Source: a virus
Lineage: Duplodnaviria; Caudoviricetes
IMG/VR virus record: IMGVR_UViG_3300047509_000139
Coordinates: 1-61,500 of that record
DNA: 61,500 nt
Reading direction: 5' to 3' (one strand)
Position 1 is the stretch's first letter. Every line of letters starts with the position of its first letter. The notes under the pieces are model-generated. The model did no database searches. It was not told the origin of the DNA and saw only the letters and a program-made list of their open reading frames with translations. Below, piece after piece: positions 6,093 through 60,553 of this stretch. A program made the position numbers and the translations under genes.

Positions 6093-6219
6093 TCACGGAA
6101 TGTAGGTGCGCTTGTAAGCCATTGCTGGCCGCAACTGGAGTCGAACCAGTAACCTTCTGCTTGAAATACAGACGCTCTACCCAAGTGAACTATGCGTGTA
6201 AGCGCGCCAGTCGCCGGGA
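6093..6219 (-). ncRNA. Y-RNA-like RNA C: D, anticodon (TTC) and T arms in normal order, opened at the acceptor stem
   Basis: Same scaffold; GTTC-ACTTGGGTA-GAGC, TCTGT-ATTTCAA-GCAGA, ACTGG-TTCGACT-CCAGT. Confidence 0.8.
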
Positions 6220-29339: not shown

Positions 29340-29430
29340 CGAAGGGATGGGAGCAGTTGGCCGCTCCGCTCGTTTGCTAAACGAGAAATCCTTTTGGGAC
29401 ACGAGGGTTCGATTCCCTCCCCTTCGGCCA
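29340..29430 (+). tRNA. tRNA-Ser(GCT)
   Basis: Cloverleaf, long variable arm, loop TTGCTAA, G73-CCA. Confidence 0.85.
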
Positions 29431-29432
29431 TA

Positions 29433-29443
29433 GCTCTTTGACA
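29433..29443 (+). promoter_or_regulatory. boxA-like antitermination site
   Basis: GCTCTTTGACA versus rrn boxA GCTCTTTAACA. Confidence 0.65.
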
Positions 29444-29455
29444 TCTGAATCTTTT

Positions 29456-29543
29456 GGGTGGTTCGTCTAGCGGCAATGGCTCCTGGCTGTAACCCAGGCG
29501 ACGGTCTCCGTCTACATAGGTTCGAGTCCTATACCACCCACCA
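29456..29543 (+). tRNA. tRNA-Tyr(GTA)
   Basis: Cloverleaf with variable arm, loop CTGTAAC, CCA. Confidence 0.92.
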
Positions 29544-29546
29544 TGT

Positions 29547-29631
29547 GGCCCTCTGGCGTAATTGGCAGCCGCGCTGGTCCTAGAAACCAGTGCCTTCGGG
29601 CGTAAGAGTTCAAGTCTCTTGGGGGCCACCA
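29547..29631 (+). tRNA. tRNA-Leu(TAG)
   Basis: Loop CCTAGAA (C33), variable arm, CCA. Confidence 0.92.
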
Positions 29632-29639
29632 AAGTTTTT

Positions 29640-29723
29640 AGGCCCGTGGTGGAACGGTTTACGCAGCGCGCTCAAAACGCGTGGTCTTCGGACATGAGGG
29701 TTCGACTCCCTCCGGGCCTACCA
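29640..29723 (+). tRNA. tRNA-Leu(CAA)
   Basis: Loop CTCAAAA, variable arm, CCA. Confidence 0.92.
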
Positions 29724-29728
29724 AAGAT

Positions 29729-29804
29729 GGGGGATAGGCTCGACTGGGAGAGCGCCGGACTCCAAACCCGGTATTGCAGAGTTCGAATCTCTGATCCCCC
29801 GCCA
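29729..29804 (+). tRNA. tRNA-Trp(CCA)
   Basis: Loop CTCCAAA, G73-CCA. Confidence 0.9.
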
Positions 29805-29816
29805 AGAACATAATAC

Positions 29817-29891
29817 CCAGGGGATGCTGATCGGTTAAGCGGTCGCCTGCAAAGCGACTTGTGGCGGGTTCGATTCCCGCTCCCTGGTCCA
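29817..29891 (+). tRNA. tRNA-Cys(GCA)
   Basis: Loop CTGCAAA, U73-CCA. Confidence 0.9.
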
Positions 29892-29892
29892 C

Positions 29893-29979
29893 GGAAGGTA
29901 GGGGGCTCTGGGATGCCCAACCAGCTTCGAATACTGGCCCTCCGCAAGGATGATCGTTCGAATCGATTACCTTCCGCCA
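29893..29979 (+). tRNA. tRNA-Ser(CGA), 8/4 fold
   Basis: GGAAGGTA/TACCTTCC acceptor, ATCG/CGAT T stem, loop TTCGAAT. Confidence 0.8.
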
Positions 29980-29986
29980 CTTTCAC

Positions 29987-30071
29987 GGAGAGTACGGCAG
30001 TAGGATCTGCAATCGGGTTTGAATTCCGACGCTCCTTCGGGATGGCCGTTCGAGTCGGCTACTCTCCTCCA
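29987..30071 (+). tRNA. tRNA-Ser(TGA), 8/4 fold
   Basis: GGAGAGTA/TACTCTCC, GCCG/CGGC, loop TTTGAAT. Confidence 0.8.
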
Positions 30072-30079
30072 TGCCTTGC

Positions 30080-30164
30080 AGAGAGCGCCGCCGATGGTTG
30101 GCGACCGGTTTGGAACACCGGGGATTCCTTCGGGAATGCGGTTCGATTCCGCCGCTCTCTGCCA
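30080..30164 (+). tRNA. tRNA-Ser(GGA), 8/4 fold
   Basis: AGAGAGCG/CGCTCTCT, GCGG/CCGC, loop TTGGAAC. Confidence 0.85.
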
Positions 30165-30173
30165 AAATACCTG

Positions 30174-30202
30174 TTGCAATGTTCAAAACTTTGCTTTAGT
30201 AT
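30174..30202 (+). promoter_or_regulatory. promoter of tRNA block 2
   Basis: TTGCAA-17 nt-TAGTAT. Confidence 0.75.
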
Positions 30203-30253
30203 TGAATTGCGAAGGAACTGCCCTACCCAGTAGGCATTTAGACTGTTTAGACA

Positions 30254-30346
30254 ATGATTCGAACCGTCCAATTCGGGAGAAGGCCGCAAGGAACAAATCC
30301 AACGTGCGCCGCCATCATGGCAGACACGCATGAAGGCGGTCCTTAG
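30254..30346 (+). CDS. leader peptide 2 MIRTVQFGRRPQGTNPTCAAIMADTHEGGP
   Basis: 30 codons, 26 different; no Ser/Leu/Tyr/Trp; stop codon overlaps the antiterminator strand. Confidence 0.7.
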   Translation: MIRTVQFGRRPQGTNPTCAAIMADTHEGGP

Positions 30347-30384
30347 CCCCAGTTGAACAGGTGTTGTTAGTTTTCAACGGGGCT
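30345..30384 (+). promoter_or_regulatory. antiterminator hairpin
   Basis: AGCCCC-A-GTTGAA (30345-30357) pairs with TTCAACGGGGCT (30373-30384), which overlaps the terminator 5' arm. Confidence 0.75.
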
Positions 30385-30413
30385 GATCGAAAGATTGGCC
30401 CCGTTTTGTTTTT
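30376..30413 (+). terminator. intrinsic terminator (attenuator) before tRNA block 2
   Basis: AACGGGGCTGATC-GAAA-GATTGGCCCCGTT followed by TTGTTTTT. Confidence 0.85.
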
Positions 30414-30414
30414 G

Positions 30415-30488
30415 CGGGGTGTAGCTGGAAGGTCGAGCCCGTGGCCTGGGACCACGAGATTGGAGTTCAATTCTCCACACCCCGACCA
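30415..30488 (+). tRNA. tRNA-Pro(TGG)
   Basis: Loop CCTGGGA (C33), CCA. Confidence 0.88.
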
Positions 30489-30495
30489 TGAGTTT

Positions 30496-30573
30496 CGGGA
30501 TGTAGCGCAGTCTGGTCAGCGCACACGCCTCGGGCGCGTGGGGCCGCTGGTTCGAATCCAGCCATCCAGACCA
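30496..30573 (+). tRNA. tRNA-Pro(CGG)
   Basis: Loop CTCGGGC, CCA. Confidence 0.92.
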
Positions 30574-30656
30574 AGTTCGCTGCGGCGAGAATCGTCACGG
30601 AAGACGGGATGCTGCTGTAAGGGCGATAACCGTAGCACCCGCGCCACAGCGATTCA

Positions 30657-30668
30657 GTTCTTTGACAA
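30657..30668 (+). promoter_or_regulatory. boxA-like antitermination site
   Basis: GTTCTTTGACAA, preceded by a branched hairpin at 30577-30652. Confidence 0.65.
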
Positions 30669-30688
30669 TTGAAAGTCTTGATTCATAA

Positions 30689-30762
30689 GCGGGCGTGGTA
30701 TAGAGGCCGTGCCCTGGGCTTCCAACCCAGAGACGAGGATTCGAATTCCTCCACCCGCTCCA
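30689..30762 (+). tRNA. tRNA-Gly(TCC)
   Basis: Loop CTTCCAA, U73-CCA. Confidence 0.9.
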
Positions 30763-30770
30763 ATTTGCTT

Positions 30771-30845
30771 GCTGGGTTCGTCTAGCGGCTAGGATTGGGC
30801 GTTGCCAATGCTCAGACACGGGTTCGAGTCCCGTACCCCGCACCA
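30771..30845 (+). tRNA. tRNA-Gly(GCC)
   Basis: Loop TTGCCAA, CCA. Confidence 0.88.
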
Positions 30846-30846
30846 T

Positions 30847-30921
30847 GCCGGAATAGCTCAGGTGGAAGAGCACCTCACTCGTAACGAGGAGATCTGGTTT
30901 CGATTACCAGTTCTGGCTCCA
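30847..30921 (+). tRNA. tRNA-Thr(CGT)
   Basis: Loop CTCGTAA, CCA. Confidence 0.9.
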
Positions 30922-30995
30922 GCCGGTATAGCTCAGTGGAAGAGCAGTTGCTTGGTAAGCAACCGACGAGCGTTCAATTCGCTCTGCTGGCTCCA
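30922..30995 (+). tRNA. tRNA-Thr(GGT)
   Basis: Loop TTGGTAA, CCA. Confidence 0.92.
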
Positions 30996-31001
30996 AGTTT
31001 T

Positions 31002-31076
31002 GCCGCGCAAGCATTGCTGGCGATGCGCTGCTCCTGTAAAGCAGTGAATTCCGTTCGATTCGGAAGCGTGGCTCCA
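31002..31076 (+). tRNA. tRNA-Thr(TGT)
   Basis: Loop CCTGTAA (C33), CCA. Confidence 0.88.
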
Positions 31077-31077
31077 T

Positions 31078-31154
31078 CCCCTCCAAGCTCTCCGGGTGGG
31101 CGCTCGTCTGATACGCGAGTTATCGACTGTGTTCGATTCACAGGGAGGGGACCA
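31078..31154 (+). tRNA. tRNA-Ile(GAT)
   Basis: Loop CTGATAC, CCA. Confidence 0.85.
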
Positions 31155-31201
31155 AGTTCTATTGCGGAACCCGGTGCGTTATGCCGTAGCATATAAGCTT
31201 A

Positions 31202-31550
31202 ATGGCGAACCGATACGCATACGTAAAGAAGGCAATTGCTAAAAGGAAACTCTGGGCCGACAAACTTAAGGATCGTCCATGTGAGCGATGTGGTATCAGG
31301 TATCCGCCATGTTGTCATGGAGTGGCATCATAGAGATCGAGCCAAGAAGTCCTTTGGGATTGGCCCAGGCAATTTTACGCGCAGTCGCAAGTTGTTACTT
31401 GAAGAGATTGCCAAGTGCGATTTGTATTGCGCTAACTGTCATCGTTTGGTTGAGGAATCATTGCGGCGAAGTGGACCGGTGCCATGCGAGGCTCATAACC
31501 TCAGCGAGTCCGTTCAACTCGGAACGCCGCAACCATTTTTGGGGTGCTAG
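31202..31550 (+). pseudogene. HNH endonuclease inserted in the tRNA array, frameshifted
   Basis: KDRPCERCGIRYPP in one frame; VMEWHH...EEIAKCDLYCANCHR in the next; extra base near 31290. Confidence 0.8.
31462..31535 (+). tRNA. tRNA-Met(CAT), initiator-like
   Basis: TGCGGCG/CGCCGCA-A-CCA, loop CTCATAA. Confidence 0.8.
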
Positions 31551-31616
31551 CTCATTCAGGAGAGCGCCGGTCCTGCAAACCGGAGGCGCTGGGGGCAGAG
31601 CCCAGGCATTCCACCA
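31541..31616 (+). tRNA. tRNA-Ala(TGC)
   Basis: G3:U70, loop CCTGCAA (C33), atypical T loop GGCAGAG. Confidence 0.85.
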
Positions 31617-31621
31617 TTTTC

Positions 31622-31697
31622 GCAGGGGAGGCCGTCGTGGTCGAGGCGCTGGCCTGAAAAGCCAGACAAGCACGTTCGATTCGTGCCCCCTGCACCA
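31622..31697 (+). tRNA. tRNA-Phe(GAA)
   Basis: Loop CTGAAAA, CCA. Confidence 0.88.
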
Positions 31698-31700
31698 GAT

Positions 31701-31775
31701 GTGACCGTGGCCGAGTGGCTTAGGCGTGCGGCTGTGAACCGCTCCACGAGAGTTCAATTCTCTCCGGTCACCCCA
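31701..31775 (+). tRNA. tRNA-His(GTG)
   Basis: Loop CTGTGAA, C73-CCA; T rather than G at -1. Confidence 0.9.
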
Positions 31776-31782
31776 TTGTTGA

Positions 31783-31857
31783 TGGCGGGTCGTTCAGTGG
31801 CCAGGACGGCAGATTTTGAATCTGTTCACGCCGGTTCGAGTCCGGCCCCGCTAACCA
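31783..31857 (+). tRNA. tRNA-Gln(TTG)
   Basis: U1-A72, loop TTTTGAA, CCA. Confidence 0.9.
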
Positions 31858-31858
31858 T

Positions 31859-31933
31859 AGCCGGTTCATTCAGCGCTTAGGATTCCTGGCTCTGACCCAG
31901 GCCACGAAGGTTGAAATCCTTCACCGGCTACCA
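31859..31933 (+). tRNA. tRNA-Gln(CTG)
   Basis: Loop CTCTGAC; D loop GC and T loop TTG (swapped 19:56 pair). Confidence 0.85.
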
Positions 31934-31940
31934 TTTTCAA

Positions 31941-32018
31941 GCCCCCGTCGTTCAATGGATTAGGATACTGCGCTACGAACGCAGAGATTTGTAGGTTCGA
32001 GTCCTACCGGGGGTACCA
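31941..32018 (+). tRNA. tRNA-Arg(ACG)
   Basis: Loop CTACGAA, A20, CCA. Confidence 0.92.
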
Positions 32019-32022
32019 TTTT

Positions 32023-32100
32023 GACCGTGTAGCTCAGTTGGAAACGAGCGCTGTCCTCCGAAGGCAGAGGCCGCTGGTTCGATCCCAGCCACGGTCACCA
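32023..32100 (+). tRNA. tRNA-Arg(CCG)
   Basis: Loop CTCCGAA, A20, CCA. Confidence 0.92.
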
Positions 32101-32108
32101 AAGTTTAT

Positions 32109-32183
32109 GGGCGCGTCTTCCAGCGGCCAGGATGGGGCTCTGTCTAAGCCTCGACGGGAGTTCAACTCTCCTCGCGCCCGCCA
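32109..32183 (+). tRNA. tRNA-Asp(GTC)
   Basis: Loop CTGTCTA (U37), G73-CCA. Confidence 0.88.
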
Positions 32184-32189
32184 TATTAC

Positions 32190-32266
32190 GTCCGCATGGT
32201 GCAGACGGCTAGCATACCTGATTCTCAATCAGGAGATCGCGGGTTCGAGTCCCGCTGCGGACGCCA
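32190..32266 (+). tRNA. tRNA-Glu(CTC)
   Basis: Loop TTCTCAA, CCA. Confidence 0.92.
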
Positions 32267-32267
32267 C

Positions 32268-32343
32268 GGCCCAGAGCACGAACGGATGAGTGCCCTGACT
32301 TTCAATCAGGTGACAGTGGGGTCAGCACCCACCTGGGCTACCA
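32268..32343 (+). tRNA. tRNA-Glu(TTC)
   Basis: Loop CTTTCAA; atypical T loop GTCAGCA. Confidence 0.8.
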
Positions 32344-32350
32344 AGTTTTC

Positions 32351-32425
32351 GGGACCAAAGCTTAGATGGCGAAGCAGGAGGCTCTTAACCTTCAGAACTC
32401 GGTTCGATTCCGAGTGGTCCCACCA
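32351..32425 (+). tRNA. tRNA-Lys(CTT)
   Basis: Loop CTCTTAA, CCA. Confidence 0.9.
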
Positions 32426-32431
32426 AGTTGT

Positions 32432-32518
32432 TGGCAGGTACCCGAGCGGTAGCAGGGATCTGGCTGTTAACCAGACGGCGCAAGCCCATCGCAGGTTCGA
32501 ATCCTGCCCTGCCAGCCA
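32432..32518 (+). tRNA. tRNA-Asn(GTT) with long variable arm
   Basis: U1-A72, G73, loop CTGTTAA, GGC-GCAA-GCC variable hairpin. Confidence 0.88.
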
Positions 32519-32526
32519 ACATTCGA

Positions 32527-32600
32527 TTCCTGGTCGTCCAACGGCAGGGCGGTGTTCTTATAAAGCACTTACGGTGGTTCGACTCCACCCCAGGGAACCA
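32527..32600 (+). tRNA. tRNA-Ile(TAT)
   Basis: Loop CTTATAA, A73-CCA. Confidence 0.88.
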
Positions 32601-32601
32601 T

Positions 32602-32680
32602 GCGGGAGTCACCGGTATTGGCATCCGGTCCTAGTCCTACAAACTAGTGATTGCTGGTTCAATTCCAGCCTCCCGTACCA
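32602..32680 (+). tRNA. tRNA-Val(TAC)
   Basis: Loop CCTACAA (C33); 5-bp D stem. Confidence 0.85.
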
Positions 32681-32685
32681 TTTTC

Positions 32686-32761
32686 GGGAAGGTAGCTCAA
32701 ACGGCAGAGCGCAGTCCTTTTAAGTCTGGCGATCGGGGTTCGAGGCCCCGCCTTCCCACCA
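32686..32761 (+). tRNA. tRNA-Lys(TTT)
   Basis: Loop CTTTTAA, CCA. Confidence 0.88.
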
Positions 32762-32763
32762 AG

Positions 32764-32842
32764 ATCCCCGTATCGGTCCTGTTTCCTAAACAGGTAAAGC
32801 CGTAATTGGACGATGCGAGTTCGAGTCTCGCCGGGGATACCA
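32764..32842 (+). tRNA. non-canonical tRNA-Arg(CCT), D arm absent from its usual position
   Basis: 7-bp acceptor, CCTGT-TTCCTAA-ACAGG, CGT-AATTGG-ACG 3' of the anticodon arm, canonical T arm, CCA. Confidence 0.75.
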
Positions 32843-32843
32843 C

Positions 32844-32920
32844 GGGCGCGTACCGGCCTCGGTTTCTACCCGAGTTCACCGTAATGGACGATGCGGGTTC
32901 AAGTCCCGCCGCGCCTTCCA
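32844..32920 (+). tRNA. non-canonical tRNA-Arg(TCT), D arm absent from its usual position
   Basis: 7-bp acceptor, CTCGG-TTTCTAC-CCGAG, CGT-AATGG-ACG 3' of the anticodon arm, canonical T arm, CCA. Confidence 0.75.
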
Positions 32921-33570: not shown

Positions 33571-33758
33571 GGTTGGACCTTCTGCCCAATTCGTGTATTC
33601 CACTGAAAGGCTGCACCGCCTTGGTCTCCACCGATTGGCCCGGTGGCCCCGCATGGGCATGTGACCCGAACGCCACGAGGCGATGCTAGAAACGATAAAT
33701 CTTCTCCGGATTCACCGCACCACGGGCACGGTAGCAGTTTATCAGTCTTGACGCTCAC
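33567..33758 (-). CDS. Lar-family zinc-ribbon protein
   Basis: LLPCPWCG...CPCGATGP...WNTR. Confidence 0.75.
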   Translation of the reverse strand: MSVKTDKLLPCPWCGESGEDLSFLASPRGVRVTCPCGATGPIGGDQGGAAFQWNTRIGQKVQP

Positions 33759-34126
33759 TTCGTCTTCTCCAGAATGGCTATCGCGCGATCCGCCAATGCG
33801 CTCGTGATACCGGTAGAGAACTCGGTCTGCACGAGGTTCGGTTGAAAACCGTCAACGTCTCCATCATCGTCTATGATCACGAAAGATTCCAGGTCGAATT
33901 TGTGCCCGTTCTCGTCGAACCACTTCCAGATCTCACGCCCGCGCGTTGGAGATTCCAGGAGCAGAGAACCAGGCTTCGGATACTCGCGCAGGTCCGGAGT
34001 CTTGCCGACCACCTGAGCGCGGACTCCCCAAGATGACAGATATTCTCGGAGCTTTACCAACGGCGTACCGTAGCGCATTGTTTCCGAGGTCCGCAAGCAC
34101 GCGGAACTCATGGATTTCCTATCCAA
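33755..34126 (-). pseudogene. HAD domain of the Swiss Army Knife RNA-repair type, N-terminus apparently missing
   Basis: VVGKTP, RGREIWKW, FVIIDDD, LVQT..STGIT present; no N-terminal DxDG motif. Confidence 0.6.
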
Positions 34127-59837: not shown

Positions 59838-60518
59838 TTACGCGGCACCTACTGCATCAGTGATAGACATTTGGATTTTCGCGGCGAGCACATTGTCCAC
59901 GGGTGCCATAAACTCATGCTGGCCGACGTATCCCTTGAACGTCAGCGTACCGGCAGAGTTCGGGAAGATCATCTGCAAGCCCGTCAGGACCAGACCGACC
60001 ATCTGGTTCCACATACCAGTCGTGAACGACTGAGTGGCGTCGGCCTTGTTGAAGTTGACCTCGAAGCTGATGTCTCCGCCGTCGATCAGTACGGCCAGTT
60101 TGCGCCGCCAGAATCCCGGCGTGTCATGCGTCGTGATATCGACCACATGTGGCTTAACTGTAGGACCGGTGATCGACCGGACTTGTGTGATCGCGGCGTA
60201 CGTCGGAGGTGACGCTACGTCGCTCATGTTCAAACTGTTGTGTTGCGACCGGGATCGCTACTCCCGACCTTCTGCCGGTTTCCTCGGCAGCACAGACTAT
60301 ATCATCACCCTGTTTTAAAGGGCGTCTCGCGCTTCCAGCCGCTTGGCCGTACGTGCTCTCGCACTAGTCGTTGAACCTGCCCATTTCTGGGATTGGCTGC
60401 TGATTACCATGAGCATATGCTTTTAGGCTTCCCAGCAATTCACGAGATTATTCACTGACCGGTTACCCGGTCAGGCCACAGATTGGGCCATGGTGCCCTT
60501 CGCGGTTGTGATGGCCAT
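59838..60518 (-). CDS. tail tube (major tail) protein; exons 60518-60490 and 60234-59838
   Basis: Spliced N-terminus MAITTAKGTILNMSD; ITQVRSITGP, VDITTHD, DGGDISFEVNF; AAGGAG upstream. Confidence 0.85.
60235..60489 (-). ncRNA. group I intron without ORF
   Basis: P AATTGCTGGGAA, Q AATCAGCAG, R GTTCAACGACTAG, S GATGATATAGTC; exon ends in U pairing with GUGG guide; terminal G. Confidence 0.9.
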
Positions 60519-60553
60519 AAGACCTTTAACTCCTTTTTAGCGTTCGAACGGTG

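Follow-up and report, generated by a model that had tools for sequence, protein, structure and literature searches.

The window analysed here is a stretch of 61,500 nucleotides (nt) from a virus of the Caudoviricetes (IMG/VR record IMGVR_UViG_3300047509_000139, positions 1 to 61,500), and it carries a phage tRNA array at 29340..32920 on the plus strand. The last two members of this array, at 32764..32842 and 32844..32920, are the subject of this work. Both are probably functional phage genes for tRNA-Arg, one with anticodon CCU (reading AGG) and one with anticodon UCU (reading AGA). They belong to a conserved and widespread family of phage tRNAs, hitherto unannotated and apparently phage-borne, in which the core of the tRNA is wired unlike the cloverleaf. 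The order of segments is acceptor, U8-A9, one strand of the D stem, anticodon arm, the other strand of the D stem, a D-loop-like A-A-U-G-G-A, A-U and T arm.

The two odd tRNA genes that close the array

Gene 1 is 79 nt long, including A73 (32839) and an encoded CCA (32840-32842). Gene 2 has 77 nt, including U73 (32917) and CCA (32918-32920). With the covariance model R1, which is described below, they score 82.4 and 75.0 bits. The acceptor stem of gene 1 (ATCCCCG/CGGGGAT, 32764-32770 with 32832-32838) forms 7/7 pairs; that of gene 2 (GGGCGCG/CGCGCCT, 32844-32850 with 32910-32916) does the same, with a G1-U72 wobble. Both anticodon arms have 5 base pairs (bp). In gene 1 the arm lies at 32778..32794 with the loop TTCCTAA and the anticodon CCT at 32785-32787, in gene 2 at 32858..32874 with the loop TTTCTAC and the anticodon TCT at 32865-32867; sequence and covariation both identify them. 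The T arms, each with a 5-bp stem, occupy 32815-32831 (loop TTCGAGT) and 32893-32909 (loop TTCAAGT). Acceptor, anticodon and T stems all pair in both genes, though their sequences differ between the two.

A canonical D stem-loop, that is, positions 10-13 paired with 22-25 around a loop of 7-11 nt, is not present before the anticodon arm in either gene. An earlier inspection of the letters alone (the sequence-only reading) had remarked that just 7 nt separate the acceptor from the anticodon stem. This was confirmed in both genes (TATCGGT at 32771-32777 and TACCGGC at 32851-32857). It had also pointed to a shared element between anticodon and T arms. This motif, CCGTAAT(T)GGACGAT, lies at 32800-32814 and 32879-32892; the window contains it twice, and 100 dinucleotide shuffles had a mean of 0.00 matches. 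The distance from the anticodon stem to the T stem is 20 nt in gene 1 and 18 nt in gene 2. Within it, the D-loop-like connector of gene 1 reads TAATTGGAC-GAT (32803..32814) and contains the T-A-A, G-G-A and A-T columns that are invariant in the family alignment (A2, see below). The connector of gene 2, TAATGGAC-GAT (32882..32892), was located by its sequence and the same alignment. The D-loop-like A-A-U-(U)-G-G-A thus lies 3' of the anticodon arm, as had been proposed.

Standard tRNA finders do not recognize these genes. ARAGORN calls neither of them in the window, and the Rfam model RF00005 misses both, at its gathering score as well as at E<=10. The sole Rfam match overlapping them is to tRNA-Sec, with 21.3 bits on gene 2. 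Likewise, 0/46 aligned members of the family described below were detected by ARAGORN. These tools miss the odd tRNAs because the parts of the D arm are re-ordered around the anticodon arm.

Covariation supports a three-way junction

Pairs were counted for a named structure on a MAFFT alignment of 46 distinct sequences (alignment A2), to which the fractions in this section refer. The acceptor helix was paired in 99.4% of cells, with compensatory changes in all 7 pairs. For the T stem the value was 98.7%, with compensatory changes in 4/5 pairs and the fifth invariant, and for the anticodon stem 91.7%, with compensatory changes in all 5 pairs.

A fourth helix, termed helix D here, has 3 bp and joins nt 11-13 of the gene to the three nt directly 5' of UAAU(U)GGA. 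In gene 1 its strands are CGG (32774..32776) and CCG (32800..32802); covariation, RNAalifold and the minimum free energy (MFE) fold of gene 1 all include this pairing. In gene 2 the strands CGG (32854..32856) and CCG (32879..32881) are assigned by covariation and RNAalifold. The first pair (11-43) was CG in 38 sequences, GC in 4, AU in 2 and UA in 2, and was never unpaired. The second (12-42) was GC in 29, CG in 12, UA in 3 and AU in 2, again with no unpaired case. The third (13-41) was GC in 27, CG in 13 and something else in 6. Altogether 95.7% of the helix D cells were paired and changes on both sides occurred in all 3 pairs. The triplets found include CGG/CCG, CCC/GGG, CTC/GAG, CAC/GTG, ACC/GGT, CGC/GCG and CTG/CAG.

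Rows with CGG/CCG had partly been pre-selected by the scan patterns used to find the family, whereas the 20 other rows had not. Among these 20, all three helix D pairs were possible in 14 and two of three in 6; random triplets would give about 5%. As a control, columns were shuffled. The whole structure was paired in 92.4% of cells, compared with 61.0% in the shuffles, and 0/500 shuffles came up to this level. With the 3' partners displaced by 1-3 columns, the pairing fell to 38-47%. From the alignment alone, RNAalifold predicted helix D and placed no hairpin in the connector.

Helix D encloses the anticodon arm, with a gap of 1 nt on the 5' side and a bulge of 2-13 nt on the 3' side. It is followed by single-stranded U-A-A-U-(U)-G-G-A-N(1-6)-A-U, which runs directly into the T stem. 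The pairing pattern shows that the odd RNA would fold as a three-way junction, with an acceptor stem of 7 bp and a T arm that both have the canonical form. Because nt 11-13 pair across the anticodon arm, both the D loop and one strand of the D stem are re-ordered around that arm. The 7 nt are therefore not the plain unpaired connector that the sequence-only reading had taken them for. In the T loop, the columns of T54-Psi55-C56, R57 and A58 are invariant or nearly so. The A-T preceding the T stem is invariant as well and was fixed by no scan.

We also considered other assignments of the arms, in which the anticodon-like hairpin would be a D arm or the connector would be the anticodon arm. Both were discarded because the hairpin alone has a 7-nt loop, U33, a purine at 37 and a conserved Arg anticodon.

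A conserved family in phages

The motif was sought in other arrays, and it proved to be conserved. A strict motif scan of IMG/VR returned 6 stretches, of which L006 was the sole family member (loci are cited by such numbers where they must be told apart). L006 is a relative in an unrelated contig; all of its stems differ in sequence yet pair. The other 5 were rejected as chance matches in coding-like sequence. In a second scan TAYCGG, CCGTAAT and GGAC were fixed and the anticodon was left free, and 63 stretches were returned. Besides the window, 26 loci were perfectly tRNA-shaped, with 11-12 of 12 acceptor and T pairs. A clear UCU or CCU anticodon was present in 27/28 tRNA-shaped rows, the exception being L019 with its irregular anticodon arm. 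The remaining 35 of the 63 rows had no tRNA shape and were dropped as chance matches. A third scan, in which the anticodon loop and TAAT/GGAC were fixed and the helix D positions were free, gave at least 119 stretches and revealed members with other sequences at helix D. The family is under-sampled by these searches and all family counts given here are lower bounds.

BLAST identified full-length relatives in cultured phages. These include the Felixounavirus coliphages heid, bumzen, warpig, tootiki and others, Salmonella phage Meda, the Pseudomonas phages PA11, TC6, PSA11 and HHBS10_2, Stenotrophomonas phage SOVA965, three Vibrio phages and a crAss-like phage. Gene 2 itself shares 81% identity over 71 nt with an unannotated stretch in the tRNA array of SOVA965. 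The covariance model R1 was built from alignment A2. It gave at least 60 matches at 50.9-91.3 bits in IMG/VR contigs and cultured phages, the two genes of the window included. The best score outside the family was 31.5 bits, and those matches were mostly ordinary tRNAs of the same loci. R1 also added members outside the reach of the scan patterns, among them two with ACG anticodons (L047:690-766 and L125:2552-2628) and the CAU, UAU and L133 members described next.

Some members depart from the common pattern. The rewired member at L161:5640-5715 (plus strand) has a CAU anticodon and GGC in the connector, and that of the crAss-like phage cr130_1 (L186:1494-1570, plus strand) has a UAU anticodon and GGUU in the connector. 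Judging by their anticodons, the rewired architecture has been re-used for putative AUA/AUG-type decoders. A CCU member on the minus strand of L133 (945-1017) has CGA/TCG as helix D, and it lacks both the connector G-G and the T-loop TTC, having TGCAAAT instead. This looks like a joint loss of both elbow partners.

Odd genes are usually located inside or beside a tRNA array, and at least one canonical tRNA was present in 39/50 member loci. In the seven annotated phage regions that were examined, no tRNA was annotated at the site of the odd gene, which was either empty or overlapped by a coding sequence (CDS) labelled 'HNH endonuclease' or 'hypothetical protein'. Examples are the 'hypothetical protein' at L187:1474-1593 in Vibrio phage 424E50-1 and the end of the 'HNH endonuclease' at L182:1069-1521 in PA11. 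Such overlapping annotations in GenBank probably extend too far or are spurious. In heid, PA11 and SOVA965 the odd tRNA is directly adjoined or overlapped by a gene annotated as an HNH homing endonuclease, which suggests that the odd tRNA may travel with homing endonucleases.

A narrow pattern, representing the CGG/CCG subgroup with a YTYCTAA loop, matched 23 of the IMG/VR loci and the window. In a set of 32.2 million contigs from 185,579 prokaryotic species the same pattern matched one contig only, a 1,359-bp piece of a metagenome bin with another tRNA adjoining. On this basis the family looks phage-borne. The sequence-only reading had described the acceptor stems, T arms and CCA of the two window genes as intact, different from each other and not decayed. 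The family with its compensatory changes bears this out: the odd tRNAs are conserved.

Decoding and probable arginine identity

Among 52 distinct members the anticodon was UCU in 35, CCU in 13, ACG in 2, CAU in 1 and irregular in 1. We then compared these anticodons with those of the canonical tRNAs beside them. Of the 22 loci that contain five or more canonical tRNAs, just 1 has a canonical tRNA with the same anticodon as the odd gene. In several arrays the two kinds share out the Arg anticodons cleanly: L047 has odd CCU and ACG together with canonical UCU and CCG, and L125 has odd UCU and ACG together with canonical CCU. In the window, the odd genes carry CCU and UCU and the canonical Arg tRNAs of the array, as called by ARAGORN, have ACG and CCG only. 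AGA and AGG make up 17% of the Arg codons in the 39 long open reading frames (ORFs) of the window. CCA is encoded in 26/52 members, and the discriminator base is G in 21, A in 20 and U in 11. The complementary anticodons, the spacers of 1-2 nt and the encoded CCA argue that the odd genes are working isoacceptors rather than relics.

The determinants of arginine identity were examined in the same sequences. A passage of PMC9976931 gives A20, C35, U/G36 and A/G73 as bacterial Arg determinants, with U73 also listed, and names U20/U21 among the determinants for Ile. C35 and A37 are invariant in A2, and the window anticodons CCU and UCU contain C35 and U36, in line with the listed C35 and U/G36. 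The discriminators A73 of gene 1 and U73 of gene 2 fit the Arg set listed in that passage. The sequence-only reading had proposed that the A following GG serves as the recognition element of arginyl-tRNA synthetase (ArgRS). This A is found in both window genes and in 50/52 members, a count in which the scans had forced GGAC for most. GGA also occurs in Arg members free of this constraint, namely L181, L182, L183, L047b, L125b, L168 (two members), L185, L187 and L188. It is absent from both non-Arg members, the CAU one with GGC and the UAU one with GGUU. That Arg members keep GGA and these two do not supports the relocated A as a putative equivalent of A20, with a non-Arg sample of two cases. 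A placing of this A at the spatial position of A20 would follow from the structural model below. The D loop of the window's canonical tRNA-Arg(ACG) reads AATGGA, as in the odd genes.

A model of the rewired core and its alternatives

A passage in PMC10424219 lists U8, A14, G18, G19, A21, U33, G53, T54, Psi55, C56, A58 and C61 as universally conserved tRNA nucleotides, and R15, Y48 and R57 as semi-conserved. All nucleotides of that list have invariant or near-invariant counterparts in A2, in a rearranged order. We propose that the odd RNA would form a canonical tRNA core whose strands follow one another in a new order. The 5' strand of helix D would act as positions 23-25 and run on without a break into 26 and the anticodon stem. 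Its 3' strand would act as positions 10-12, with the D-loop nucleotides next, as they normally come after 10-13. The connector would supply A14, R15, G18, G19, A20 and A21, and then Y48 as the Levitt partner of R15. In gene 1 its nucleotides would correspond to 13, A14, A15, 16, 17, G18, G19, A20, 20a, A21 and U48. Three new joints of the chain would result, from 9 to 22/23, from 44/45 to 10 and from 21 to 48.

In tRNA, nucleotide 9 contacts the pair 12-23, 45 contacts 10-25, 21 contacts 8-14 and 15 contacts 48. By these contacts, each new joint would run between nucleotides that are already in contact or stacked in an ordinary tRNA. Therefore the L-shape, the elbow between G18G19 and the T loop and the length of the anticodon limb could be kept. 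The limb would retain about the same layers, 5 bp plus a 26/44-like layer plus 3 bp. Instead of a 13-22 pair there would be two linkers, position 10, which is unpaired, and the U that precedes A-A. The host ArgRS would then recognize such an RNA by C35, U36 and the A behind GG (as A20) and charge it. Release of the odd tRNAs from the array would fall to RNase P and the 3' processing enzymes, as for the neighbouring genes, and the products would provide the AGA and AGG decoders that the canonical tRNAs of the array leave uncovered.

Several observations weigh against this model. Helix D has just 3 bp, and its third pair is C-A or G-G in two subgroups, GCC/AGC and TGG/GCA (6/46). The first pair of the anticodon stem is unpaired in 16/46. 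The MFE fold of gene 2 lacks the CGG/CCG pairing, with a weak z-score of -0.96. Pairing of position 10 with the U that precedes A-A-U was considered too and discarded, as it was possible in 6.5%. The apparent invariance of UA, UAAU and GGAC largely follows from the search patterns. Two members are irregular, L019 in its anticodon arm and L133:945-1017 in lacking GG and the T-loop TTC, and the sole array with a duplicated anticodon, L168, also has a canonical UCU tRNA. Among sequencing runs, the locus was listed for a single DNA run, perhaps of the source sample, and for no RNA run. Finally, the proposed equivalence to the canonical core in three dimensions leans on textbook tertiary contacts.

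The same secondary structure could also belong to a D-armless tRNA with a flexible shape, comparable to the tRNA-Ser(AGY) of metazoan mitochondria. Helix D would then lengthen the anticodon arm, and the GG connector would not be docked canonically on the T loop. The three-way junction and the extended anticodon limb do resemble the mitochondrial D-armless type as it is outlined in sections of PMC4013460 and PMC7609411. However, the mitochondrial D-armless tRNAs are without elbow nucleotides, whereas the odd family keeps U8, A-A, G-G, A-U and the full T-loop consensus. The one member without GG (in L133) has also lost the T-loop TTC, as would be expected if GG and T loop interact. In addition, the host translation apparatus is bacterial, with no known co-evolution with armless tRNAs. 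We consider this alternative unlikely.

A role outside translation was weighed next. Conserved tRNA-like RNAs might be decoys or sensors in a conflict between phage and host over tRNAs, or substrates of phage enzymes. Phages are known to counter host defences that target tRNAs, and a protein with the HAD domain of 'Swiss Army Knife RNA repair' proteins is encoded about 0.8 kb downstream on the other strand. Against a decoy, the anticodon loops keep U33, R37 and Arg anticodons, and the acceptor stem, discriminator and CCA are kept too. Moreover, the anticodons complement the canonical tRNAs in 21/22 arrays and the A after GG tracks anticodon identity. Such a role therefore seems improbable.

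The sequence-only reading had drawn a different structure, with the 7-nt connector unpaired and a relocated CGU/ACG mini-hairpin that shows GG-A in its loop. This hairpin is possible in both window genes, and the MFE fold of gene 2 contains it. In A2, by contrast, all three CGU/ACG pairs are possible in 10/46 only, two in 32/46 and one in 4/46. When the 5' partner changes, the nt after GGA stays unchanged; the 5' partner covaries with nt 11-12 instead. RNAalifold placed no such hairpin in the connector, as described above, and we regard this structure as very improbable.

Decayed pseudogenes or chance tRNA-like sequence, to which the rejection of the genes by standard tRNA finders might point, are hardly credible in view of at least 60 matches in unrelated phages, compensatory changes in all four helices and a motif found twice against 0 expected.

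Returning to the rewired core, a more far-reaching version can be put forward tentatively, although we rate it as doubtful. The odd RNAs may be a natural topological isomer of the tRNA core, with the same L-shape and conserved nucleotides, and with the D-stem strands and D loop threaded in another order. It would have arisen and spread in phages, often beside homing endonuclease genes, and would be used for decoders of rare codons (AGA, AGG, occasionally CGN, AUA). The RNAs would be charged by the host and used by the ribosome, yet evade host enzymes that depend on a normal D arm, for example defence nucleases directed at tRNAs, or enzymes of modification and quality control. Escape from such enzymes is the most interesting possible reason for the architecture.

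Other features of the array and the window

Proteins of the window match phage replication families (a DnaB-like helicase, a primosomal protein and a DNA methyltransferase), and the completeness of the 61.5-kb IMG/VR virus record is estimated at 73%. ARAGORN called 30 tRNAs in the window. The last of them ends at 32761, and the two odd genes follow after spacers of 2 nt and 1 nt. Lower thresholds revealed further array tRNAs beyond these 30. BLAST of the whole array against phages and plasmids gave no syntenic relative, just scattered similarities to single tRNAs.

Other array members were unusual in different ways; all lie on the plus strand. At 32268-32341 a tRNA-like gene folds as a cloverleaf. 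Its anticodon loop is CTTTCAA (UUC, Glu), its T loop GTCAGCA is unusual, and ACCA follows. It is called by neither ARAGORN nor Rfam and would provide a Glu(UUC) decoder that is absent from the array. A TGC (Ala) tRNA at 31541-31613 has the odd T loop GGCAGAG; it is missed by ARAGORN at default settings and matches the Rfam tRNA model with 38.4 bits. A CAT (Met) tRNA at 31462-31535 was detected at a lowered ARAGORN threshold only, and its fold is weak. At 32432-32518 there is an 87-nt tRNA with the anticodon GTT (Asn) and a long variable arm, and a type-II-like Asn tRNA of this kind is unusual. It is about 82% identical to annotated tRNA-Asn genes of phiKZ-like Pseudomonas jumbo phages. The 79-nt tRNA at 32602-32680, Val (TAC) according to ARAGORN, matches the Rfam model for tRNA-Sec (29.8 bits, sub-threshold) and not that for tRNA. 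It may be another non-standard member of the array.

Within the array, at 31190-31550 (plus strand), two overlapping frames contain C-x-x-C and C-x-x-C-H motifs, like a frame-shifted HNH endonuclease. Pfam reported no HNH domain in the ORFs within the array. The HAD-domain ORF mentioned above lies at 33755-34126 on the minus strand (PF18143, E 1.9e-12) and may be relevant to tRNA damage or repair during infection. Elsewhere in the window, a group I intron was identified at 60272-60537 (minus strand, 78.8 bits) and a lone tRNA at 6130-6196 (minus strand, 43.7 bits, model positions 4-67).

Relation to known tRNAs and meaning

Compared with canonical bacterial or phage tRNA-Arg, the odd genes share the 7-bp acceptor, the discriminator, CCA, the 5-bp T arm with its consensus loop and the 5-bp anticodon arm with U33, C35, U36 and A37. 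The D-loop-like A-A-U-G-G-A and the location and spacing in the array are alike as well. In contrast, the odd genes have no D stem-loop 5' of the anticodon arm and form a three-way rather than a four-way junction. One strand of their D stem lies on each side of the anticodon arm, and the nucleotides of the D loop come after that arm.

D-armless mitochondrial tRNA-Ser(AGY/AGN), in the accounts given in parts of PMC4013460 and PMC7609411, resembles them in the short connector between acceptor and anticodon arm, in the extended anticodon limb and in reading AGN codons. These tRNAs are organellar, have lost the G18G19/T-loop nucleotides of the elbow and need co-evolved factors. The odd tRNAs, on the other hand, retain the elbow nucleotides in a new place, are carried by phages of bacteria and have predicted Arg identity. 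Other natural tRNAs of bacteria and their phages, those with 8/4 or 9/3 acceptor/T branches (allo-tRNAs, tRNA-Sec-like; PMC5389517), likewise deviate from the usual cloverleaf and are overlooked or wrongly scored by common tools. They keep four arms and change the lengths of stems, whereas the odd family changes the connectivity of the D domain.

Segments out of canonical order are a feature of another group too. Red algae have circularly permuted tRNA genes, which encode the 3' half upstream of the 5' half and whose transcripts regain a normal cloverleaf on processing. The odd genes differ from these in having the normal order of acceptor, anticodon and T arms, and their internal re-ordering would persist in the mature RNA.

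Full-text literature searches returned no description of such tRNAs; most subscription journals and supplements were outside these searches, so that an earlier description is possible. The words 'phage' and 'virus' are both absent from the review of non-canonical tRNAs PMC7609411. To our knowledge, the predicted secondary structure of the odd tRNAs, backed by covariation, is new. The odd tRNAs make up a non-cloverleaf family that appears to work with the bacterial translation machinery.

The family is present in well-studied cultured phages, among them Felix O1-type coliphages and PA11-type phages of Pseudomonas. If the model is true, the core fold of tRNA tolerates a re-ordering of its strands, which would matter for the evolution of tRNA and for designing orthogonal tRNAs. 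ARAGORN and Rfam-type models would be shown to have a blind spot, and AGA/AGG decoders that seem to be missing from phage tRNA sets would be explained. The phages of E. coli K-12 would then offer a tractable system for studying how a rewired tRNA is handled by ArgRS, RNase P, EF-Tu and the ribosome.

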